Assembly: GCA_030141605.1 (NCBI GenBank)
Contig: JAQGDQ010000536.1
Location: forward strand, 1 to 55,839
Length of the DNA: 55,839 bases
Reading direction: 5' to 3'
Source of the DNA: Tubiluchus corallicola
Taxonomy: Eukaryota; Animalia; Priapulida
In this document: piece by piece, positions 2,626-55,839 of the stretch
Layout: every line of letters begins with the position of its first letter
How positions within the stretch are numbered: position 1 is the first letter of the stretch
Made by a program: the position numbers and the translations under genes
Notes under the pieces: generated by a model
The model's input: the letters and a program-made list of their open reading frames with translations, nothing else
Told to the model about the DNA's origin: nothing
The model's database searches: none

Positions 2626-3354
2626 GAGGTGTAATAACACGAGAAGGATGAAGGAAAATTACGTTTAGTCTACTTTTCTTTTCGTTCACAATTATTGACG
2701 CTGCTTAATGGAGAATCAATGCGCATCTTTTATTTAGAACTTTTGCAAGAAGAAAATGCAAACATAATTTCACAAGGCGCCATTATGGAAAATATTGAGT
2801 AGGCCTACAATTATGTGAGATGCTATTGAGTTCGTTAGTCCACAACTGTCACTCAGTCCAAACCTTAAACAAAGCACCCAGAAACTCTGTGAACAAAAAT
2901 CAATTTTAATTTCATTTCAAAAATTATTTTCTCCAATCTCAACAAGCTGCTGTCATTCGCGGGTTCGATGGAGGTTTTCCTCAAGGTTCTCTTCAACTCT
3001 CAACCTTTAAAAAGACGAACTTCTGGTTGAACTAACCAGAAAACTCTCTCAAGTCGCTCCATTCCAACTTCGCCGCAGGTGTTGACGGAGTTTTTTACTA
3101 GCAGCAGGTAACAGTGGCAACTGTTAAATGTTATATGTGCTTCTGTGCATAATTGAACAGCTTGATCAGGAGCCATTTTTTATAATCTTGGAAGACTTAT
3201 GGCTGATTCTAGTTATTGATTTTCACGTAGTTTTCACTTACTGTTTAAATATTTGGTTCACAGGCTTGAAAATGGTCACTCGATTACCTATAAGTTTTCA
3301 TGAGGCCTAGATACATAGATAGATAATTTAGGTCTAAACAAATAGATATCCTTT

Positions 3355-4286
3355 CAGTTTGTAGACTGGTGATGCATAATCAGCTTTTAAAATGGTGATG
3401 CATAATCAGCTTGTAAACTAGTGATGCATAATCAGCTTGTAAAATGGTGATGCACAATCGGCTTGTAAACTAGTGATGCACAATCGGCTTGTAAACTAGT
3501 GATGCACAATCAGCTTGTAAACTAGTGATGCACAATCAGCTTGTAAACTAGTGACGCGTGATCAGCTTGTAAACTAGTGATGCATAATCAGCTTGTAAAC
3601 TAGTGATGCGCAATCAGCTTGTAAACTGGTGATACACAATCAGCTTGTAAAATAGTGACACATGATCAGCTTGTAAACTAGCGATGCATAATCAGCTTGT
3701 AAACTAGTGATGCGCAATCAGCTTGTAAACTACTGATGCACAATCAGTTTGTAAACTAGTGATGCATAATCAGTTTGTAAACTAGTGATGCACAATCAGC
3801 TTGTAAACTAGTGATGCGCAATCAGCTTGTAAACTAGTGATGCACAATCAGTTTATAAACTAGTGATGCATAAACAGCTTGTAAACTAGTGATGCGCAAT
3901 CAGCTTGTAAACTAGTGATGCACAATCAGTTTGTAAACTAGTGACACGTGATCAGCGTGTAAACTAGTGATGCAGAATCAGCTTGTAAACTAGTGATGCG
4001 CAATCAGCTTGTAAACTAGTGATGCACAATCAGTTTGTAAACTAGTGACACGTGACCAGCGTGTAAACTAGTGATGCACAATCAGCTTGTAAACTAGTGA
4101 TGCGCAATAAGCTTGGAAACTAGTGATGCGCAATAAGCTTGGAAACTAGTGATGCGCAATAAGCTTGGAAACTAGTGATGCGCAATAAGCTTGGAAACTA
4201 GTGATGCACAATCAGCTTGTAAACTAGTGATGCACAATCAGCTTGTAAACTAGTGATGCGCAATAAGCTTGGAAACTAGTGATGTG
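3355..4286. repeat. 26-bp tandem satellite, ~35 copies (CAGCTTGTAAACTAGTGATGCACAAT)
   Basis: Head-to-tail units with no spacers, containing variant sub-blocks. Confidence 0.95.
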
Positions 4287-4634
4287 TGGTAATAATTCTT
4301 GTGTTTGTGTGGCAATAATTCTTTCACGCAAGTCATTTTTGAAAAAAATAGTATGTTTCTTTTCAATATTTTAAATAGTAGATTGTTTTGACCTACAGTT
4401 GAAGATTGGGTTCGGTTTTGCTTTAACTGCGCCCCAAAAAACATTTCATACTAAGTTACATTACTTTGCTTCACGAAACTAGAGAGGAAAATTCCTACTA
4501 ATTAAGGGGTCTGCTTCAACTGGAAAAAAAACGTCACTGACACATCTTCCCAGTGTGCATCACTGATTCACAAAAATATATTATTGATGTTATTGACAAG
4601 ATAAAGTAATTCATACTTCTACTTAGTGAAACGT

Positions 4635-22321: not shown

Positions 22322-23554
22322 ATGCACTTAAGAATTTACAAAAACACTATGCTATTACTGAACTTAAAAACCAAAGATTCAATTGCCTAGTGCTACTTCA
22401 CGTGCTACTAGGTGGCTAGAATGGCAGAAAGATTTTAGCAGAAGTTAATATCGTCGAATAATTTAATGTAATACAATTTAGCACAAAAACGTCAAATACG
22501 TGTGGATTAATTTGACTACTTTACATCACAGGTAGAAAGCAGACAGGTATCTGAATGGAAAGCTGGCGTGAAGAGCTTAGTTTACGTCAATGCCGCAGAT
22601 GGCGCGACATGCATGAAATTTATAGTTCTAAATTAAAATTTAAAAGACTGCAGTAGGGCTGCTAAGTTTTCGAAAGTTCGCTAAATTCAGTTCTACAGCC
22701 ACCTTCTAAGCAAACTAATTAATTACTCATTAACAAATTGGTTAAACAATTAACCACAATTTGAATTCGAGAAAAATAAGATGCTGGAACGTGGTACAGC
22801 CGCTATGAGATGGTGATTAGTGGCCGTATTTGATGGACTGGTGGATAACCACACCTGGTGAGACCATCGTAGTGGTGGAAGTCGGCCTCGGAGTCATTAG
22901 AGTGCTTGAGAGGATTCCCATACGAGTCAGCCATTAATGACGCTTGGAGTTCCCAGGACCAATGGTGGGAGTACGCTGGTGGTGAGCGACAGATACCAGT
23001 CGTCAGGAGCTCCTTTCTTGCTCTTTGTGGTGAACAGGACTTGTTGAGAAACCTGCCGGCCAACCGGACGTCTGTGCATTATTTCCCCCAATACGTGGCG
23101 CCACGGTATGAGTATTTAGCTAGAGCACTAATATTAATGAGATAGCCATACGTCATGTACATTTTACGTGTTTGCGTTGTATTACAACCAAGCGTTGTAT
23201 GTTAAATTGTCATGTCAAAATATATCGTTAAACCTAAGCTTAACTCTTTTGCTGTTTAAAGCACAAGAAAACCCTTCATGAACACAAAGCTTGAAAAATT
23301 CGTTTTGAAATTTTATATCGCTTACATACTGCCTTTTTGCAAGCAGGACTTCAATCGGCAGTAGCGCTGTATAAAACGTGTAAATTTAAAGTCCGGCGAT
23401 GACCGCTAGACGCAGCCATTTTCACGACAGGTCATTTGAATCAAGTTTAGATAACATTTTGTAAAGTTTGAAAAAACAATCAGAGCATTCGTAACGCACA
23501 AGTCACTAACTAAATAAAATTTAAAATAACTGTATCTTGTCAATAAGATTAAAA

Positions 23555-23922
23555 ATACGTTTTTTGGTTAGTGAGTGGTGCACCCTGAAGGGTGAGTCAG
23601 TGACATTTTAAATAATTAATAATTTTCTTTTCTAGTTACACAAATCTCTCTAGCAGGTAAGCGAAAATCTAAGTAATATAGATTTGCACGAAAGTCTTTT
23701 GAGATATAATTTAGCCTTTTCTTGCCTTCATTTACATCTGGTACATGACGTCATGTAATGGCGACTTCGGAACAGGATTGCGGGAGATTTAAAATGAAAA
23801 CAAACTAAAATTCCTTTTAGTACGAGTACGATATACGCATGAAATTGCTATAAAGTAATATAATTTTGTAAGGCGATTTTTCTGAAGCCTACTTCAGGTA
23901 CCCCTTTTCTTGTCCTTTAAGT
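23555..23922 (-). mobile_element. Non-autonomous DNA-transposon-like dispersed repeat (inverted copy at 48348-48733), possibly Kolobok-type
   Basis: Long collinear inverted similarity (CAGGTAAGCGAAAA.CTAAGTAAT.TAGATTTGCAC; ATTGCGGGAGATTTAAAATG; CCTACTTCAGGT.CCCC). One end reads TTAA-AGGACA on the minus strand. Confidence 0.6.
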
Positions 23923-24296
23923 ATAAAGACGTAATCGGTGCCTCATGACTAAATGAGAAACACCGTGAGAACCAACCGCAGCTGTAAGCACTTATCACAC
24001 TCGGCTAGTAGTTAGGTCTCAGGTACTGCCTCACCCCAAGAACCGACCCTATTACGCTGTAACACTATTATTATATCATGATACAGTGCAGAGTTTCGTC
24101 CTGCGAATTGAGATCTTGCATGTATATATGTATATATTGTGCAAATAAAGACTTTTCATCATAATATGTACTCATAAAACGTAAATTGCCCATGGAATCG
24201 TAAAACAAATATTTATTTTGCTCTCAACTAGTTTTAAATCTATTTACTTATAAACTCACTTGCTTATCAAGGCAATGTATGTCCAAGCGAAAAATG

Positions 24297-28500: not shown

Positions 28501-29117
28501 ATAAGACAGTGTTAGTTTAAACAATATTTTTATTTGATAAAGAGCACTACAATCATAAATACCGTTATGATAAAAACAATGGGTAATTAATCAAATGCTG
28601 ATCAAATGGCTAGCAGGTATGACCTAACTAAAAGCCTTTCAGTGAGTAAATACGTCATTTATAAGTTAGGCACAGGATTATAAGAACTGTTAGTTATGCA
28701 TTAAGTACAGCGAGATTGAGAAAGATGTGTAACTTGTTTTTGAATAGCGATGGGCGAGCGGGTGGGACAAGTTGGTTACGATGTGTTTGATGTTGATGTT
28801 AAGCTACAAAAATACAATGAGTGATAATGAAACTAATGAAAGACGAAAGTGTTGGGTTCACAGGAATGCAAGAATATAAATAGTTTGTCCTGTAAGGTAG
28901 AATTAAGTGATTATTAATGTATTATAGATTTAGTTTTATTGATTAAAGCGCCCACTTTGTATAATAAATGAAATGACAGCAGATACTATAGCATTGTTAG
29001 AATCAGGAGACAGTGAGATATCGCCATATAGTAGTATTTGTAAGACAGTGTTGATGACGATGATGATGTGATGACGATGATGATGTTGATGGCGATGTTG
29101 ATGACGATGATGGAGGT

Positions 29118-29540
29118 ACAGCGATAAGGACGATTATATATTCTACTGTAGGCTAAACACGTTGCATATTTTATGTAAAAACCGCGCAGCTGTGATGCTC
29201 CATTTTCCCACTTCGAATGGAATGTGAATCTCATTAACGACCTAAATTACCATGACAACTAATTTCAAAGGCAACAGGTTCAAGTCATAAATAGTAAACT
29301 GTTTTCAATTTAATGCAACAGCTAGAGATAATGTAATCTGCTACAGTGATTGTTGAAGGTCCACTATGTTAAATTTGTATCAAAAACTTCTGATATTAGA
29401 GGCACTCTTGAAGTGAGAAGGCAGTTGTCGTAAGTTTGACTTGGTGTCTTTCCTGTAGAGCATGTAAGTCTACGTGAGTAATTCTGGTAGTAGCTAAATT
29501 GTTCCACTTTCAGTAGAATTGAATATTGAAAAGTAAGTAA
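29118..29540 (+). promoter_or_regulatory. Putative promoter and non-coding first exon of sulfotransferase copy 1
   Basis: Closely matches 51706-52150 ahead of copy 3 and more weakly 38885-39135 and 48008-48262. Ends in a strong donor AAA|GTAAGT at 29533, and an acceptor TTTGTAG lies 5 nt before the ATG. Confidence 0.55.
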
Positions 29541-29867
29541 AGTTTTTTTAAATAAAATTGGGTAATTTGGTTCAATTATACTGTTTACTAGGTTGTTTTT
29601 TGTGCTTTACTGCAGAAGGAGCAAAAACAATTATATGTCAGACAATTCATTTAAAATATTCTCAATCGTAAACAAAGTCTGAAAATAATAAAATATCAAA
29701 CACATGCGATTAAATAAAGCCTATGAACAGATTACAGATTACAGATTATTAAAATGAGTGTACAACAATCAGCAAACACATTATATTATATATATATATA
29801 ATACACAACTACACTACATCTGAGGTCTATTCAAAAGTTAGACGAATTATCATTGTTTGTAGGTAAA

Positions 29868-35255
<5,388 letters not shown>

Positions 35256-36410
35256 AACAAACCTCCATCAAGTTGAAGATCTTTTGCCTATTTGCCAGTT
35301 TTTACATATAAAGCATTAAGTAAATTAGAATAGTATTATTAAATAGACATTTGCTACCTGTGATTAAGGCTTAACTAGTTCGTTAATTAACAGAAAAATT
35401 AGGCTACACAGTACTGATTCGTAATTACTAATAATACTGAATAATATTCAGTAATAATAAATCACAATAATTAGATGATTTACCATTAATTATTTAGTGA
35501 AGCAGTTTAAATTGAAACTTTATTGCGTTCATTTTGCACCTAATCATAATAAGCCTTTCTATAACCACGTAATACCGTATTATATAATCACATTATATAT
35601 GTGCATACATAGCTTCATGTCTTCATGACAACATAGCTTCAGGTCAACATGGCTTCATGTCATAGGCAGGCAAAAGCAGGTGTCAAAATACAGGAAGATC
35701 TAAAATCTGCAAGGTTAAGATTTAATGAAATGAAAAAATGTACTTAAGCTAGGCTGACATAAACTGGCATGCTAATTTTACATGTTAGTTGTTATTGTGA
35801 CTAGGATTTTACTGTTGCAAGGCGTGAAAATGTAATTGAACTTGTGATAATTTAGCAGATAGATATTTCATTTTAGTTTAGCTATATGTATACTAGCTTT
35901 ATATCTTTATGTTGCTAATGCTTGTTTAGTTGATCCTGGTAAAAAATGACAAAAAAATAAAGGAATATATGCACTTTCTGTATTGATTTGAATTACTGTT
36001 TTAGTGAAAATTGGCTTTCACCCTTCCACCCTGTCTTATTCAACTCCTTCCTAGCTCCTGCCAACCAGTTTGATTCCACTCCATTCCAGTGCTGTTTCGT
36101 CCCATCCAACATCCGTGCTGTAGAAAGTATTCCTAGTATACTTGCCGTTGAAACGGCTATCTAATCATTGCCTGCACTGCCCCGGCCCAATCCCGTTCTC
36201 CAGAAATAAGAGGTGTAAATTTTGCAATTTTTTACGAACAACGGTCAAAAAAAGGCTATTGTGGGAGATTTTCCGCGCTTTGTTCATCCAGGTGAGTGCA
36301 ATTCGTAAAATAAACCTCCAATGGGACCACACTAAATCAAGACCTTTCTTTTGATTTATAGATCGAAATGGTGCTGTGATTGAAGCTGTAGCCGCGAATC
36401 TTATATATCG

Positions 36411-38760: not shown

Positions 38761-39824
38761 CACGACCGTAGAGAAAAATAGACGTTTTGCCAAATGTTAA
38801 CAAAGCTTGCAGGACAGTTGCTATACTTTCCCAAAGGAAAATCTGGCCTTCAGTCAATTGCCCAAATACGTCTAGATTCACGTGCTCATAAATTACCATG
38901 AAAAACAATTTCAGAGAAAACTAGTTAATTATAACACAAAGCTCAGTGTCAATAACACTATAAGGTCGAACGTCTGCTTCAGTGATTGTTGAAGGACCGC
39001 AAAGTGAAAGCCCCTTATATCAGAGAAACACGGTAGTTGTTAAATGTTGAAGTTGTTTAAAGCCGTGCGCTGAAGTAATCCTGATAAACTGACAGCTTCA
39101 ATTTCAGCTATTGTGAATATTGCAAAGTAAGTAAGTTATTTTTAAAGTTGATTAACATTAATTAATAAGATAATAATTAATTTTCTGTCAGAAAAGCATA
39201 AGAAAGATTGATGCGTAGGTGAATAATTAAAATCAGACATGTCTCCAAAAATGGTTTATTCTGTTGCTGTATCATCGAAATTCGTGCTGGACAAAATGGA
39301 GCAGGACCATAATAAATAACGAGCTCATTTTCTTCTGAACAATAGGCAAAATTTATCGATGAACTTATTTGCTAAATTAGTGAACAATAGTGATACAACT
39401 CGCTATTATATTCCACCAATAATTTTTCATCAGCACGGATTATTTTTCATCAATAATATTTCATCAGCACGAATTATTTTTCATCAATAATTTTTCATCA
39501 GCACGAATTATATTTCATCAATAATTTCCAAAAAAACTTAATAATTTATTCTATAGGAATTTGTATTCCAATAATAATTTAATAATTTATCAGCCTCAAA
39601 TCCATAAAACGCTCCACAGTCAATAACAGATGAAAAGATTATGCCATTAATAATTTAATTGTTTCACTTTCTGTAACATTTTAATTTTTTTTCTTTTCGT
39701 CGTGTCTGTTCGATGCAAATGTTTGTCTTCTGTACATCTGTATTATTTTTAAGAATATATTTTATTTTCTGCGCACAAAACCTGTCTTTCAAAAGGATTA
39801 CTCCTTAAGTAAATGAATGAGTAG

Positions 39825-40226
39825 ATAAATGATGATTATGACAATGACAATGACGATGATGATGACGATGATGATGATAATGAAGTCAACGATGACGATG
39901 TTGGCAACGATGACGATAGTGATGATGACTATTATTATGGTAACTATGTTGATGATGATGATGATGACGACGACGACGACGATGATGTCGGCGATGATGA
40001 TAATAGTGATGATGACGATTATTATGGTGATGATGTTGATTATGATGATGATGATGATGATAATGAAGATGACGATGACGATGTCGGTGATGACGATGAT
40101 AGTGATGATAACGATTATTATGGTGATGATGTTGATGATGATGATGATGATGATGACGACGACGACGATGATGATGAAGATAACGATGGCGATGTTGGTG
40201 ATGATGATGATGATGATGATGATGAT

Positions 40227-40258
<32 letters not shown>

Positions 40259-40655
40259 TGATGATAATGATAATGAAGAAAACGATGACGATGTCGGCGA
40301 TGATGATGATAGTGATGACGACGATTATTATGATGATGATGAAGATGATGATGACGATGTCGGTGATGATGATGATAGTGATGATAACGATTATTATGGT
40401 GATGATGTTGATGATGATGATGATGATGATGACGACGACGACGACGACGATGATGATGAAGATAACGATGGCGATGTTGGTGATGATGATGATAGTGATG
40501 ACGACGATTATTATGGTGATGAAGATGATGATGATGATGATGACGACGACGACGAAGACGACGCCGACGCCGATGATGATGATGAAGATAACGATGACGA
40601 TGTCAGTGATGTTGATGATGATGACGAAGAGCGACGACGATTGCGATGATGATGG
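39825..40655. repeat. Long degenerate (GAT/GAC)n tract with higher-order periodicity
   Basis: Recurring block GATAGTGATGA.(A/G)ACGATTATTATGGTGATGATGTTGATG. Confidence 0.9.
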
Positions 40656-41316
40656 CAACGGTAACCAATGAAATTTTATTAATATAATGGCAACTTGCCA
40701 TCCATGATATCTTTTTTAAGAATATAAATTTTAAAATTCCGTAATTGGAAAAATAGTTACTTGTCTAACTTAACGTGAATGTACAACTGAGCGTTTCGAA
40801 ACCTTTGTACTTAATCTACGTTCTGTAAGTTTGGGTTACAGTGTTTCGCGGAATGCAAAAGTGATGTAATTTGTGACGATTTGAATGAATCAGAAACAAA
40901 ATTTTTTATATCCTTCGGTAACACGTTTTCCTTTTCAATGGCCACAAAATTGATGCCTTAAATAATGAAAATGTGAGGTAAAAGATTTTTTTAAACATGT
41001 TTGATTAATTGGTTTGTTTTATTTCTGTTTCTCAGAAATTCCTGCTACACAAAATTGGCTCTAATTGTGTAATAGGTAAATTTCGTAAATTTCAATAACT
41101 GTTGCCTATTTGTACTTGCTTGAAAAACCTATTTCTTCTGATTTGACTTCTTATGTATTAAAGGACTGTGTGTATGTGTGTGTGGGGGGTGTGTGTGTGG
41201 GGGGTGTATGGGTGTGTTGTATCCATGCTTAAATTGCCTAATTATATGTCACTCTCTCTGAGATCACTTTACCTAATAAAACATTAGGCAAGCTATTATT
41301 GTTGTCTGTAGATAAA

Positions 41317-47160
<5,844 letters not shown>

Positions 47161-48347
47161 AACAAACCACCATCAAGTTGAAGATCTTTTGCCTATTTGC
47201 CAGTTTTACATATAAAGCATTAAGTAAATTAGAATAGTATTATTAAATAGACGTTTGCTACCTGTGATTAAGGCTTAACTAGTTCGTTAATTAACAAAAA
47301 AATTAGGCTACACAGTACTGATTCGTAATTACTAATAATACTGAATAATATTCAGTAATAATAAATCACAATAAATAGCTGATTTACCATTAATTATTTA
47401 GTGAAGCAGTTTAAATTGAAACTTTATTGCATTCATTTTGCACCTAATCATAATAAGCCTTTCTATAACCACGTAATATCGTATTATATAATCACATTAT
47501 ATATTTGCATACATAGCTTCATGTCTTCATGACAACATAGCTACAGGTCAACATGGCTTCATGTCATAGGCAGGCAAAAGCAGGTGTCAAAATACAGAAA
47601 GACCTAAAATCTGCAAGGTAAGGATTTAGTGAATTGAAAAAATGTACTTAAGCTAGACTGACATAAACTGGCATGCTAATTTTACATGTCAGTTGTTATT
47701 GTGACTAGGCTTTTACTGTTGCAAGGCGTGAAAATGTAATCGAACTAGTGATAATTTAGCAGATAGATATTTCATTTTAGTTTAGCTATATGTATACTAG
47801 CTTTATATCTTTATGTTGCTAATGCTTGGTTAGTTGATCCTGGTCAAAAATTACAAAAAATAAAGGAATATGTGCACTTTCTGTATTGATTTGAATTACT
47901 GTTTTAGTGAAAACTGGCTTTTGCTCTTTATTCTTTCATTCATTAAGTTTCCCAAGTAGTGAACACTTTTGAACAAACTCTTTGGGAGACAAAATGGTTC
48001 AAGACACGCTCGTTAATTATAACACAATGCTCAGAGTCAATAACAGTGAAAGGTCGAACAGCTGCTTCTGCTATTGTTGAAAGTCCACGGTTAGATAAGA
48101 ACGAAAGCTTCTCATATAAAAAAAACGTTATTAAAAAGAGAAAGAATTGTCGTTATAAGTTTGGAGGTCGTTTGTCTAGAGCCAGTTGTGCCTATGAGAG
48201 TAATCCCGGTAATATACTGGTTCCATTTTCAAGAATGAATTATTACTGAGTTAAGTAAACTACATTTGAAGTCAGTTTTAGTACAATAATTTTGATTTTA
48301 CTTCTTACTGAAATTGTCGAAGTTGCTTGGAAGTTTGTTTATAGAAA

Positions 48348-48733
48348 GTACTTAATGGACAAAAAAAGGGGCACCTGAAGTAGGTTTCAGAAAAATTACC
48401 CCAAAAAAATCATACTACTTTAAGCCAATTTTATTCACATATGGCATTCGCGTTGAAAGGAATTTTTGTTTGTTTCCATTTTAAATCTCCCGCAATACTG
48501 TTCCGACGGCATCATTACATGACGTCACTACGCCATGTAAATCAGGGGAAGAAAAGGAAATGTTAAATTACGACCCAAAAATGTTCGGTGCAAATCTACA
48601 TTACTTAGCTTTTCGCTTACCTGCTGGAAAAACTTATGTAACTAGACTAATAATTTAAAATGTTTGTGCCAATTGGTAAAATGTGGCAGACTCACCTTCC
48701 AGGGTGCGCCACTAACTAGCCAAAACGCATTTT
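48348..48733 (+). mobile_element. Dispersed DNA-transposon-like repeat, inverted copy of 23555-23922
   Basis: See 23555-23922. Confidence 0.6.
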
Positions 48734-48734
48734 G

Positions 48735-48995
48735 TCTATGTCTACGATCAGATCATCCCATTCCATGGTTTTGCCACTCAGGGGAAACGTTTCAATGGAT
48801 CTTTTTATGCTTCCATTGAATCGCTCACACAAGCCTTAAGATTGAATATCATATGGAGTAGATGTAATCCCTTTGATGTGGAAAGCTTCTTCTAGTTGCC
48901 GTATGAGATTAGAGCAAAATTGGGTGCCTTGGTCGGACTGGATTGACTCTGGTCATCCATGCCTACTAATAAATTGAAGTAAACACTTGGCTATA
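48735..48995 (-). mobile_element. Ty3/Gypsy-type integrase core fragment (pseudogenised)
   Basis: IAKCLLQFISRHG*PESIQSDQGTQFCSNL...ITSTPYDIQS*GLCERFNGSIKR...WDD contains the second D and the E of the DDE triad with the Gypsy-style STPYHPQ..G..ERFN motif. Two in-frame stops. Confidence 0.85.
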
Positions 48996-49261
48996 ATGAG
49001 CTTAGGAGTCTTAATGAGCCAGTAATATTCGACGGTAGATAGAGTACCAAACCAACTATTAAGCTGTATATAACAAAATTTAATGATTACTACTTTAACC
49101 AGGAGAAAAGAAATAGTTAACAAAAAATATCAATGACAGTGCAGCAAATAAGCAAATATATTCTCTAGTCTAACGATAGAGAGGGGAGGTGTTAGTGGGG
49201 TAGCACGTGCACGTCCATGGCCTTTAATATCTCTTCACAACCAATCATCAAGTCAGAAAAT

Positions 49262-51122
49262 TACCTGAGTTTCTCTTTTGCATTATTCTTTATGATTGCA
49301 AACTCATTTATTTTAGCCAACCACGGTTGCGTTACAAATAAAGGGTGACCCGAAACATTCAATAAGTATTTGCCTAGCACGGCTGTATGCAATCTGTGGG
49401 TCCATATAACTGCAACTTTTGACGACCCGTTTTGCTTCGCCCGTACAAAATTGTAAAAGCCTGGTATATCTCTTCCCGTCATCATGTGTATAATTTTCTA
49501 CCGAAGTCTCGAACCGACGAATAAAGCGCCAGAGATTCATAATATTTCCGTCATATTTCTCTAGCTCCACATTTGGCAGTTGCATCGCACAATACATATT
49601 TAAATGCTGCTGCTGACCTTCCAAAATGAGATCCATTAATTGCTTATTGTCGCCAAAATTATTTGTGGGAGGCGAGCCTGAGAGGGTGTTTCCGCAAAGT
49701 GTATTGTGTGAAGCTTGTTGAGGTAAGGAAGCCTGTTGAACACTGCTCCTGTCATGTATGTGAGTGGCAAATTCAAGTGCATCAGGACTGAGTTTAGTTC
49801 GGGTAGGAATGTGCTGCTGAACATTAGCTTTATTTATTTGTTCTATTTCATGAGGCCAGTTCGGTTCCACCTCATGAATGTAAAGTGACCCGCAAATATT
49901 TAACACTTCAGATTCAAAGTCTGTTTCACCTGTAGATGGCGCCACGTGCTTGTGATAAATGCTGCGTATACTGTCCCAGGGCTTACTGCTAGCCATGAAA
50001 TGAGCAACCTTGACACTTTCTCGAAACTGCTTCACAGCTGATAACTGTTGCATTATAAATGTATGGCAATCGTTTATCAAACGCTGTATTCCAGGCGTTA
50101 AAATACAGATTTAGTAGACCTTGATCTCCACCGTCGAATGTGCTTGAATCTGATTGAGCGAATGACCGTAATTCACTGTACGTGGCAAGATTAGGTTCAA
50201 AAATGAAAAGCTCGCTATTAAAACAATCAGGCCAGCCTATATCTGCAACTGCTGACAGTTCGTTCCAGCTAAATAAATCGTCTACGTTTTGCAGCACAAT
50301 CACATCAGAATTAAAAAATACACATTTTGAGAACCGAGTTAGCCTCCAACAATGCAGTTTTGTAAAAGTCACCTTTAATTCGGGCCGCCCTAGTAATTGT
50401 AGACTTTCTACATCTGAATTATCAATAGCTACCGCAAGCTCCACATGGTCAAAGGCGGCGCTTATCTGCGTCATTATGGGTTTAGAAATTCCAGTTGTAA
50501 TTAATATCGCTAAACTACGTGTAATACTAACATTACGTAGCGATGAAGCCAATACTAAAGCACCTATGGAGTGTTTATCATTGGTAGCCATAGTAACGTA
50601 AGCTTCGGGTTTGATGAGCCCGTCAGGTGACGTGACTAGTGCGACTTCTTTGTGTGACATTTCAATCCGCACATTGTCATTTTCTGCACTTCATATTTCT
50701 TTGGCTACAGGCGAAACCACATCTGAACTAGCAAACCCTTGAGTAGCCTTTTGCATGCGCAAATGTTTGATTTTCAAGGCTTGTAATTTTGGTTTCTGTT
50801 CTTTAATTTTCAAAGCATGCAAATCAAGCCTGCTTAAGTTTGTTGCAGAAGTTTTTAGACTGCTGGACGTGGTTTTGTCTTTTCTGCGTTACTCCCCCTC
50901 GCCTGATTGGTCACAAGCTGTTTTAACACTCTCATTCTTTGAAGTAGGCGTGGTTACCTCTATAGTAATTTCGCTCTCCTATACTCGTTGAACTAATTCG
51001 GCTTTGCTTCCAGCGACTTGTAATCCCTTATCCCGTAGCAACTGTCTTAACTCTTGTACCGTTTTTTGCTGTAGCTGTTCTTCATTTAGTCTCAACAAAT
51101 CTTGTCTTTGCCCGGAAGCCAT
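49262..51122 (-). mobile_element. Decayed Bel/Pao-type LTR-retrotransposon gag ORF: SAP domain, coiled coil, glycogenin domain, PAM2-like motif, DUF1759-type core
   Basis: ATG at 51122 opens MASGQRQDLLRLNEEQLQQKTVQELRQLLRDKGLQVAGSKAELVQRV (SAP), 150 codons upstream of and in frame with ORF 50672, with stops at 50981, 50891 and 50693. After a frameshift near 50043 come KLSPDALEF and LPNVELEKYDGNIMNLWRFIRRFETSV...RLLQFCTGEAKRVVKSC...YSRARQILIECFGSP. After a second frameshift, WLAKINEFAIIKNNAKEKLR. Confidence 0.82.
49855..50610 (-). pseudogene. GYG1: Intronless glycogenin catalytic (GT8) domain embedded in the gag frame, frameshifted
   Basis: EAYVTMATND, GALVLASSLR, LLGRPELKVTFTKLHCWRLTRFSKCVF, NVDDLF..ELSAVADIGWPDCFNS, FDGGDQGLLN.YF, LPYIYN, then in the shifted frame AVKQF..SVKVAHF....KPW. 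The DAD motif reads NSD and the YSY acceptor segment is missing. Confidence 0.92.
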
Positions 51123-51705
51123 GCTGTACTAGCCTTATCCAGGTGTTCTATTCTCGAAAGCAATATGGCCGTCTCACTTAGGTACACGCACTGAGATATA
51201 AAACTGTGTGCTGCATGCGCTAAATACAAGTCCAACAGTCTTTTAGATGTAATTGATGTTTTTTTATTGCCCAAAATGGGCAATCATCGTCTCATCCCAA
51301 AATCACTATCACATCACGACATATTTGACTGACCGACTGACTGACTGACATATTATGTGCGATTCGACTTCGTTTTATCTGAAGCAAATAAAAACATTTT
51401 CTGCTAATCCAATGTCAAAAAGGTAATTAACTGCTATAATGAAAATGCATAATATTATTATGAAATATGAAGAAATCAAACTTACATCTTTGCCGCATCT
51501 TACTAACTTGCTAAAGAGAACTCGACTGACAAAATTTTGTTATAAAACGTCACGACGTACCGAACAAGAATGACTTCTTTCCTATCCAGTGTCCAAAGTG
51601 AGGCCAATGGCCTATTTCCTGTCCTAGCTCACCTGTCTATCAACAGCCTAATTTTGCAAAAACAAACACAAGGAGGCACCACGTGCTTATATCCAAAACA
51701 AGGTG

Positions 51706-52150
51706 ACAGCGATAATGACGATTATATATTCTACTGTAGGCTAAACACGTTACGTTTTTTATGTAGAAAACCGCGCAGTTGTGAAAAGATGTTGCTGGTC
51801 CATTTTCCCACTTCGGATGGAATGTGAATCTCATTAACGACCTAAATTACCATGACAACTAATTTCAAAAACAACAGGTTCAAGTAATAATTAGTAAACT
51901 GTGTTTAATTTAATGCAAAAGCTAGAACTAATGTGATCGAGCAGATCTCCTTCAGTGATTGTTGAAGGTCCACTATGTTAAATTTGTATCAAAAACTTCT
52001 TATGTTAGAGGCACTCTTGAAGTGAGAAGGCAGTTGTCATAAGCTGGAGGTGGTGTCTTTCCTGTAGTGCATGTAAGTCTACGTGAGTAATTCTGGTAAT
52101 AGCTAAACTGTTCCACTTTCAGTAGAATTGAATATTGAAAAGTAAGTAAA
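51706..52150 (+). promoter_or_regulatory. Putative promoter and non-coding first exon of sulfotransferase copy 3
   Basis: Paralogous to 29118-29540; donor GTAAGT at 52142. Confidence 0.55.
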
Positions 52151-52477
52151 GTTTTTCTTATAAAATTGGGTAATTTGGTTCGATTATGCTGTTTACTAGG
52201 TTGTTTTTGTGCTTTTCTGCAAAAGGAGCAAAAACAATTATATATCAGACAATTCATTTAAAGTATTCTCAATTGTAAACAAAGTCTGAAAATAATAAAA
52301 TATCAAATACATGCAATTAGATAAAGCCTATGAGCAGATTACAGATTATTAAAATGAGTATACAACAATCAGTAAACACATTATATTATATATATATATA
52401 TATATATATAATACACAATTATACTACATTGGAGGTCTCTTCAAAAGTTAGACGAATTATCATTGTTTATAGGTAAA

Positions 52478-55220
52478 ATGGAGTGGCCAAAAATGTACGA
52501 AGACAGAAAACATGAACTGGAAAGAGGAGGCGATGGTGTTATCAGACTTAAGGACGTTTACGATCACTTACTACCCGCTTTAAAAAGAGGTGACATGGTT
52601 ATTAAGCCTGACGATGTCTTCGCAGTTTCGTATTACAGAGCGGGTTTGTATCGTTTTAATTTTTCTAATGTAGCAGCAATTAGTAGAGCATGAAGGCACT
52701 ACTAAACAAACTTCATCAGTCAATCTTTAATGGCTCATAATGCCCAAGCTTGATGGACCCCGAAAAAGATTTTCAATATTTGAAAAAAAATGTGTGGAAA
52801 TATCCGTTAGTTTGGTTTGCAGTAAACAGTAAAATAGTACATTTTCTTTGAGAATGTTTTATTGACACGCACAAAGATAGGTTTATTTAAAGACTTTGCA
52901 ATAAATTTACTTTAAGCTATGTAAATGTCCCTAAAATATACAACGAGTTCTAAAAATATCCAAGGTTGGTGCAGGCGAGTTCCTTGCTCCCCCATCTGTG
53001 TTGGTGGTGGATCCCATAATTTCTGTAGCCTATGGGCCCCAAAAGGTCGTAATCCGGCCCTGCTTATAATGCAGCACAACTAATATGATGGGAATGTAGT
53101 GCAATGTAACATAGAGTAACGTACTGTAATGTAACAATCAAATATGATTTAAGATACTTTGTCAATTCTCAAAATGATATGAGCAGTTCCAGAAATTTGT
53201 AATCATGATATACACCGTTTCACTTGCTAAAATAAGTGTGATCTGTTTTACTTTTTGACAAATTTGTTGATCTATTTTTGCATGTAATTTTTTCCACTTA
53301 GATTTACACTTAATAAACAATATGCATGTTCATGTTCAAGAACATTTCTACGTATTAGTTTTTTTAATGAGAGGCAAAACATGGCAATTAAAACATCATA
53401 GACTTAAATTTGCATGCTGTCTTGCGAATGGCTGCATATCAGGTGGCCGACATATTGATTTGTCTGTTAATAAATCATCAATGAAGCCATTTAGGTATTT
53501 CAGTATGTTTCAAGGTTAAACAGATATTCAAATTAACAATAGCTTCGATTTTTAATTGTGAAATGGAATTTTATGAAGGAATTGAAGAAATTAAAGCTAT
53601 TTCAATCAAGGAAACACGTGGAAATTAATGATTTATATATAGTAACTTATTATACTTCATAATATTCAAAAAATGAAAGCAGTAAAATCTCCGTTTTGCT
53701 TTGATGAAACTGTAAATCTATAAATCTATTAAATTTTTGTGACTTTACTGTTATAATTGTGTGCAACAATCGTGTTTATGTTTTTAATATATTAATTTTC
53801 CAGGATGTCGTTGTTTTTGGGATATTGCTGCAAACGTGTTGTCTCGTGGTGAAAAGGAACGTGCAATAGAATATCGTACTCATTTGAAAGCCATAGAAGT
53901 AGCGATTACCACACCGGAACAGCACATAGACAAACTTAATCATGAGCCGTTCAGCGGCAGGAGAATTTTTGCCTCAAGCCTGGTTCCAGAACATTTACCA
54001 CAAGAGATCTTTACAAAACAATGCAAGGTGAGAAAGTATGTTAAAGTTACAGTTGCTAGAATTTGACATTGATCTAAACATGGAAATTGAGCACCCGTCT
54101 TAACTTTTGTGTTTTCACTGCATCTATTGCTATATTTGAATTGCCATGAATAGGTTATTTTGTGAAAATTTCATTTAATGTATTTGATTTGATGCATTTT
54201 TCTACGAACACACAGCCTATTGTAAAACACATATGTTGTAGAACAGCACATAGGCGAACTTAATCATGAGCCGTTCAGAGTCAGGAGAATTTTTGCCTCT
54301 TTTGTAACTCCAGAACGGCTGCCACAAGAGATTTTTGCAAAGAATTGTAAGGTCAGAGAAAAAACAATAGACCAGTTCTTTCTGAACTTGAAGTTAAGAA
54401 CTGAAAAATTGTCACTTATTTTTTTGGTACATTTGTCACTAAATTTTACATTTCTAAAAGTTGCTTATAAATGGAGGTACACACAGAGAAGCAGTATTGT
54501 TCTGATATCAGTTTGGTATTGGTTTTGGTGAATATCAAATGATCGGCATCAGTTCAAATCGGTTTATTGGGATCGGAACAACACTGACGTGTAGATGTTC
54601 TTCAAGGAAATTTAAACTGAAGATGTACAACTGCCTTCAGTCAAAGTCTGGTAACGTAAAAACTGCTGAACCAAAATACTTCATAATAATTTGGAGCGTT
54701 AGCAATTTGTAATACAGACGCTTTTGGTTTTATTGATTTTTTGCACACAGGTTATTTATGTGTTGAGAAATCCTAAAGATGTTGCGGTGTCTTGCTATGA
54801 GATGCACAAAATGACCAAGCATCTTGGCCAAGTGAAGGACATGCCATTTAGTGACTTTCTTCCATACTTTCTTGATGGCAATGGTAAGATGTTACAAAAA
54901 ACACTGCCTGTACATGATCGACAAAGGCAATTACAGCTTTCTTGATATTAATTTCAAGTTTTTGCCCAGAAATTTTTCTAAATGCACTTGCAGTGTTGGC
55001 ACTTGCTTAAATGAGGACATTTCCCAAAGTTTTAGTTTTCAAGGTACGTTCTATTTGTGTATGTTTACTCTATTATTGCTTTCTTATTTCTCGTTTATGT
55101 TAAATTGTTATTATATCTGTTACAGTTGCGGGTGGTTCCTGGTTTGAAAATACAATGAAATGGCGGAAGCTCAAGGATAAACGTAATGTTCTGTACATCA
55201 GATTCGAGGATTTTCTAAAG
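52478..55220 (+). CDS. Cytosolic sulfotransferase-like protein, copy 3 (first four coding exons, runs off the window; His replaced by Ser)
   Basis: join(52478-52643,53804-54027,54751-54883,55126-55220...). Open frame, GT-AG, and intron 4 is still collinear with copies 1 and 2 at the window end. Confidence 0.9.
54242..54351 (+). other. Intact 110-nt intronic duplicate of the 3' half of exon 2 in copy 3 (candidate alternative exon)
   Basis: TTGTAG|AACAGCAC...TGTAAG|GTCAGA; open frame (E)QHIGELNHEPFRVRRIFASFVTPERLPQEIFAKNCK; phase 1 in, phase 0 out. Confidence 0.75.
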
Positions 55221-55839
55221 GTTAGTCTGTAACATGCATTTTAACATCTTAGCCACTTAAAAAATGAAGAATACAATATCAAGAAATGTGCTTTTAAAAT
55301 TTACCATATCAGAACTAGTGTTAACCAAGTAGTGCTGACGTATGATATCACATGTGTAATGGAACAACAAAACTTAGCAGAAATGGCAAAACTTATGTGA
55401 TGGCCCCATGGTATACAGCGACCACCGAAAACTTGTATTAGCCATCGAGTGCCAACCACAGAAAAAGTGCCGTTATGCTTCATAACATTACACAGAAATA
55501 GGTTATGGTAACATCTACATTTCTAACAAATAATGAACTTTTTCAATTAGCAAGCGTGTGATAATTAAGATGGAAAATGAAGAAAATTTATCAATTGGAA
55601 CTTTTGCCGCTCACAAAAATAAATTGCAGTTAGTGCCAGTTTTGTTTTTACTAATTCCATTTAATAGTTAATAAATCGTGACGATCTGATGGAGAGCTCT
55701 GTTAGATCCATTCATGCAAACTGGAAATAACTAATAGCTCGGCTTGTGTTAAGCTAGTCTAATGCAAAGGGATGGCCATAAATTGTCATTTTTCCTAAAC
55801 TCATCCAATGTGCTGGCTTATTTCATAACTCACCAATCA

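Follow-up and report, generated by a model that had tools for sequence, protein, structure and literature searches.

A decayed Bel/Pao-type gag remnant with a glycogenin domain in register

The question raised by this locus is how a glycogenin catalytic domain came to lie inside a retrotransposon gag, and whether it has ever served the element that carries it. On the minus strand of the window (the whole stretch of 55,839 nucleotides that was analysed), a gag remnant begins with a SAP domain and a linker rich in serine; these are followed by a glycogenin domain of the GT8 type without introns, a PAM2-like motif and a gag core of the Bel/Pao DUF1759 type, all in register. We lean, with somewhat better than even confidence, towards the reading that a Bel/Pao element has decayed here to its 5′ part, and that its GT8 domain was captured by LTR-mediated template switching and was carried as an in-frame passenger, not as a working enzyme. 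The features, in the order in which the element would be read, are:

51207-51700, minus strand: high-copy repeat directly upstream of the gag, a candidate 5′ LTR or an unrelated inserted repeat (contig depth)
50982-51122, minus strand: ATG and SAP domain, the gag N-terminus (Pfam PF02037, E 5.8e-10; frame from the ATG at 51122)
50610-50981, minus strand: gag linker, a Ser-rich, coil-like stretch with stops at 50981, 50891 and 50693 (translation)
50042-50609, minus strand: glycogenin GT8, N-terminal three quarters, intronless, with N-S-D for DxD at 50304-50312 (PDB, HMM and Pfam matches)
49855-50041, minus strand: C-terminal part of GT8, read in a second frame and preceded by a short deletion where the acceptor tyrosine would lie; the synthase-binding tail is missing
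49652-49854, minus strand: gag linker including a PAM2-like motif at 49769-49792 (motif pattern)
49216-49651, minus strand: Bel/Pao gag core (DUF1759 region) with a frameshift at about 49336 and a stop at 49262, ending before the zinc knuckle (tblastn)

The domain order SAP-linker-GT8-PAM2-like motif-gag core is real. In the SAP frame, the GT8 region matches glycogenin-1 in PDB (E 1.6e-59), and positions 3-193 of a host-glycogenin HMM, made from 119 of the 120 listed glycogenin matches (one was dropped as a partial duplicate match), align at E 2e-84. Positions 188-264 align in the second frame (E 1e-10) with no intron-sized gap between the frames, in agreement with the description of the domain as intronless in an earlier note on this DNA. 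Over 189 core columns, identity to 32 animal glycogenins is 51-57%. The second frame then runs on from GT8 through the PAM2-like motif into the gag core. The motif was called with a PAM2-like pattern of our own, which was found in 9 of 150 gag relatives versus 1 of 120 glycogenins. The earlier note had placed a Ser-rich, coiled-coil stretch and GT8 in one frame from the ATG at 51122; SAP and GT8 do share this frame and the linker is Ser-rich, but three in-frame stops interrupt it, and the coiled-coil stretch, compared with a profile of the relatives' coils, does not score above shuffled sequence (46 of 200 shuffles score as high).

The gag can be assigned to the Bel/Pao type (Belpaoviridae) by homology. 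The gag core has 1472 relatives at E ≤ 1e-3 among 1.84 billion representatives. Thirty of them, picked as top or long matches from the best 150 of the 1472, were scanned for domains, and DUF1759 occurs in 19, the Pao peptidase (Peptidase_A17) in 8 and an N-terminal SAP in 2. The core is thus DUF1759-like through its relatives, as the earlier note had it, but the gag piece of the window itself receives no DUF1759 call from Pfam. By tblastn, four full-length Bel/Pao polyproteins align to the window only at 49216-49651 (E 1e-17 to 1e-25), in their gag only; no Bel/Pao pol (protease, RT, RNase H or integrase) was found with them anywhere in the window, and the element there is therefore a truncated remnant. 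The repeat at 51207-51700 may be its 5′ LTR. This repeat starts with TG, carries AATAAA and has ACA near its end, and its length of about 0.45-0.5 kb compares with 0.2-1.2 kb for Bel/Pao LTRs; it has a boundary at 51701, and its lower end is uncertain (51207-51250). Alternatively, it may be a separate element, since it has no partner in the window and its contig depth, hundreds of times the flank depth, is far greater than that of the internal sequence. The repeat has no Rfam match, and no terminal inverted repeat was found in it. By eye, TGG is absent after both candidate LTR ends, the position of which is uncertain (the Bel/Pao primer-binding site is that of tRNA-Arg or tRNA-Gly).

The window copy of the element is dead, because it has three stops, a frameshift at the acceptor tyrosine, an NxD motif and a gag cut short, with neither a Bel/Pao pol nor a second LTR in the window. 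The first aspartate of DxD is gone (N-S-D); in human glycogenin-1, Asp102His abolishes autoglucosylation, according to a section of PMC5203857. In the HMM alignment, the frameshift at about 50041 coincides with the acceptor-tyrosine position of the host glycogenins, which in the human protein is Tyr195 (PMC7046021, in part). A single frameshift followed by the glycogenin end, the PAM2-like motif and the gag core had been described; the order stands, but a second frameshift, at about 49336, comes before the stop at 49262, and beyond 49216 there is no further gag homology. This second frameshift is present in none of the aligned contigs and may be an assembly error. The glycogen-synthase-binding tail, whose motif occurs in 107 of 120 host proteins, is indeed omitted: a search of the window with its profile, across all six frames, gave no match.

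How, then, was the domain acquired? GT8 is sense-oriented and both of its junctions, SAP-linker-GT8 and GT8-gag, are in register, as the earlier note had noticed; simple arithmetic gives this about a 1 in 18 chance. Near the 3′ junction there is no run of at least 5 A, and the longest direct repeat flanking GT8, as a candidate target-site duplication, is 7 nt (50604 and 49798), a length at which chance alone would give about two. The GT8 span is interrupted by introns in animal glycogenin, since human GYG1 Asp102 lies in exon 3 (PMC5203857). Here, an intronless partial glycogenin is flanked on both sides by LTR-element sequence, on the upstream side as judged from SAP and the register. In the relevant sections of Tan et al. 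2016 (PMC5131818), LTR elements in animals, including a Pao element, are described to template-switch onto host mRNA, and the resulting retrocopies to be partial, intronless, without poly(A) or target-site duplication, and open to further copying. The absence of introns, the sense orientation, the register and the lack of poly(A) and of a target-site duplication above chance all fit RNA-level capture, as had been proposed.

In such a capture, reverse transcriptase would switch onto a co-packaged glycogenin mRNA and then back, leaving about 250 glycogenin codons in the linker, a part of variable length that separates the gag N-terminus from the capsid core. With GT8 taken out, this linker measures 180 codons; in the relatives, where 20 of 150 were measurable, the interquartile range is 138-180 and the maximum 504, a spread which suggests that the gag linker tolerates length change. 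Three Bel/Pao gags (P0242, P0259 and P0260) have very long linkers, their DUF1759-type core starting at residues 420-540, and these linkers contain no recognised domain above the cut-off. In Bel/Pao elements, gag and pol may make up a single continuous gene (PMC8742986) and be translated as one frame, so an in-register insert would keep the gag-pol frame open and permit the chimera to go on replicating. The frame would presumably be maintained while the enzyme residues drifted freely, and a few copies, made by transposition (in cis or in trans) and/or tandem duplication, would then have decayed separately.

The presence of such copies was addressed by aligning public contigs of sequencing samples or runs (X1, X2, X4 and X5) to the window. 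Contigs of three samples hold other versions of the element, 82-95% identical to the window. In X2, the best-matching sample, 27 of the 50 contigs aligned on 49500-50960 are under 99% alike, and one contig of the linker, showing 20 differences over 217 bases, stands at depth 718 compared with 199 for a window-identical contig, although contig depth is not copy number and the pieces listed are 19 of 76. The 3′ junction is bridged by X2 record 3 and X4 record 11, the 5′ junction marginally, by X4 record 14 alone, with about 30 bases on the GT8 side. Most breaks of the window copy are not shared, and several are private to it: the stop at 50693 and the frameshift at about 50041 are not common to all versions, and at the acceptor-tyrosine site one X2 contig lacks the break in a nucleotide alignment. 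Since other versions occur in three samples and most breaks are unshared, the GT8-carrying element is probably not single-copy. Between SAP and the coil, the commonest variant (X2 depth about 500 of 720; X4 record 22) does not keep the reading frame of the window, which speaks for copying after inactivation. Within GT8, one X4 contig carries a frameshift of its own. Unique flanks in X4 differ from the window by 4-5%, and the single-depth X4 pieces may therefore be alleles of the window locus. The X5 sample has next to no words in common with the window and nothing on the unique flanks; it contributes two gap-free but unjoined pieces, one of the linker (82%) and one of the GT8 C-terminal part (84%), at depth 3.5-5.3. 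No host-glycogenin exon-like pieces were noticed among the contigs at 80% likeness, a gap that in such data proves nothing. No contig of X6, possibly an RNA run, aligned to the window, a result that has no bearing on expression.

A 5.9-kb contig of X1 and a 6.6-kb contig of X2 align at the SAP region alone (50969-51171) at about 84%, and may represent a sister family without GT8 or with a far more diverged one.

The surroundings of the element bear on how these versions arose. The element sits in the spacer between two of the tandem, intron-containing sulfotransferase units of the window (29114-36018, 41295-47921 and 51701-55839; 88-96% alike by blastn), which carry Sulfotransfer_1 (Pfam PF00685). 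It is conceivable, if quite improbable, that a one-off glycogenin retrocopy arose in a gag that never moved again, and that the other versions reflect allelic variation and tandem duplication of the sulfotransferase array. The units have diverged from each other by 4-8% in substitutions, a range similar to that of the element versions; the flank at 47954-48261, outside the element and with no paralog in the window, is also at two to three times single depth; and the commonest variant shares a frame break. Segmental duplication in the array could indeed explain part of the copy signal. A one-off event would, however, leave the sense orientation and in-register junctions to chance, and the marks of such a retrocopy, poly(A) and a target-site duplication, are absent. 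Furthermore, X4 record 22 is unlike the window beyond 51207, the X5 pieces are 16-18% diverged from it, and the other sulfotransferase units in the window lack the element; an empty-site comparison with a paralogous unit shows just the common boundary at 51701, where the paralogous segment starts. The earlier note had named a single-copy fusion with poly(A) or a target-site duplication around the glycogenin part as the case against its view; here other versions are seen and neither mark is present. Its proposal of an active family carrying the fusion is plausible, but neither pol nor an LTR pair nor a copy free of interruptions came to light, which counts against the passenger reading too.

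Whether GT8 was selected within the element was addressed from its substitutions. Of 82 near-invariant host columns, GT8 in the window retains 67 (82%, versus 98% in hosts), and at variable columns its identity reaches 0.33, compared with 0.43 from host to host (32 hosts); the loss is thus about a fifth to a quarter in either class, which is what unselected decay would produce. The codon comparison between versions used 52 listed differences (38 of the 40 shown from 140 in all, two at stop codons being dropped, and 14 others). Synonymous codons make up 9 of 27 in GT8 (neutral expectation 0.23-0.29, P 0.25), 7 of 14 in the gag core (P 0.03) and 0 of 7 in the linker. Together, the two tests, of invariant versus variable columns and of synonymous share, give no sign of purifying selection on GT8; resting on one decayed copy and 52 differences, they mostly register decay after insertion and are compatible with earlier selection. 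Indels in the listed X2 and X4 pieces number 3, versus 11.7 expected from the window's duplicated segments, and 0 versus 5.6 in X5. This hints weakly that the reading frame was kept, though nothing indicates that catalysis was, given that 49 of 189 control windows (228 bases, at least 15 substitutions) are also gap-free and comparable ones are so in about a quarter to a half of cases. In a tree with host glycogenins, the window GT8 has a branch of 2.52 versus a median of 0.3 and is unplaced, with no starred clade.

These data weigh on a further reading, possible but on balance unlikely, in which selection acted on a Gag-glycogenin fusion in an autonomous Bel/Pao family, the GT8 dimerising or self-glucosylating on the particle or tying it to germ-cell glycogen, and the copy in the window is old and dead. 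The capture spans the whole catalytic domain and leaves out the synthase-binding tail, several breaks are found in the window copy alone, and the gap-free X5 pieces have no counterpart on the unique flanks. At the differing non-synonymous GT8 codons, other versions are closer to the host glycogenins 8 times, but the window is closer 7 times and neither 3 times, so the other versions have decayed too. Nor do the invariant sites show excess conservation or GT8 a synonymous excess, and the X5 pieces are unjoined and of low depth. A profile scan found GT8 in none of the 150 gag relatives (best E 0.12), and none of the 120 listed longer glycogenin matches resembles the SAP, linker or gag parts. A working glucosyltransferase role, as the earlier note had suggested, thus finds no backing: the first DxD aspartate is lost, the acceptor-tyrosine site is broken and the two selection tests are negative. 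We give very little credence to the idea that the SAP-GT8-gag chimera was domesticated as a host gene with the window holding its pseudogene. LTR-made chimeras can become genes, maize Bs1 being an example in the sections of PMC5131818 on such chimeras, but no matching protein was found in protein searches, and every version seen in enough detail has breaks or changes at conserved sites.

The in-frame passenger that we favour resembles the LTR-mediated retrocopies treated in parts of Tan et al. 2016 (PMC5131818), among them a Pao BATUMI chimera, in its partial intronless host coding sequence, in the lack of poly(A) and of a target-site duplication, and in the possibility of further copies. In those cases, however, the cargo replaces part of an ORF and the element is non-autonomous, whereas here little or no gag was apparently lost and gag continues in register on either side of the insert. 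Another LTR element with captured gene parts, maize Bs1 as discussed there, has one to five copies sharing switch points, but it is a plant element with pieces of three parental genes, compared with one animal enzyme domain in a Bel/Pao gag. Bel/Pao elements with SAP and DUF1759 (P0156 and P0172; Belpaoviridae, PMC8742986) likewise begin with SAP and continue through a Ser-rich linker into a DUF1759-type core; they differ in that no gag relative carries GT8, and in that the window copy is without pol and without an LTR pair. From animal glycogenin-1, with which it shares 51-57% identity and the 67 near-invariant positions, the window domain differs in its NxD, the break at the acceptor tyrosine, the missing synthase-binding tail, the absence of introns and its long branch.

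Searches for a similar architecture were negative within their scope. Searches for longer proteins with the second-frame piece and with the stretch from SAP to the start of GT8 gave no match, which is weak evidence; two metagenome scans returned no relatives, and the exact window proteins are absent from the protein collection searched. No glycogenin-retrotransposon fusion was found in listings of the literature, and 'SAP' and 'glycosyl' do not occur in the main text of PMC3118150; Repbase, Dfam and supplements lay outside this search and could hold such a family. The capture process is known; neither glycogenin as cargo nor its in-frame position in gag appears to have been described. In most described cases, the gene piece captured by an LTR element takes the place of some of the element's own coding sequence; a complete enzyme domain lying in register within gag would demonstrate that the linker of Bel/Pao gags accepts about 250 foreign residues, a route of domain shuffling. 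If GT8 was under selection, a retroelement would have used a host glycosyltransferase as a particle component, and, if the fusion itself was selected, a host metabolic enzyme would be a permanent part of the Gag polyprotein, through which a virus-like particle dimerised or with which it glucosylated itself, and the particle would have been directed to germ-cell cytoplasm rich in glycogen. As it stands, the locus is an unusual fossil whose GT8 was never seen to serve the element.

Other repeats lie in the window. High-copy repeats at 48350-48730 and 49000-49210 are nested beside the cut end of gag, the former resembling 23552-23923 in inverted orientation. An integrase scrap at 48722-48952 was considered as the element's pol and rejected, being unmatched by Bel/Pao polyproteins. 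It is an integrase core on the minus strand with stops (Pfam rve, E 2e-4), presumably Gypsy-like by its motifs, and a 2-kb X5 contig aligns to it gap-free. Elsewhere, a tandem array of 26-bp period and long trinucleotide microsatellites (3354-4288, 39800-40700 and 46500-46950) give rise to spurious low-complexity ORFs.
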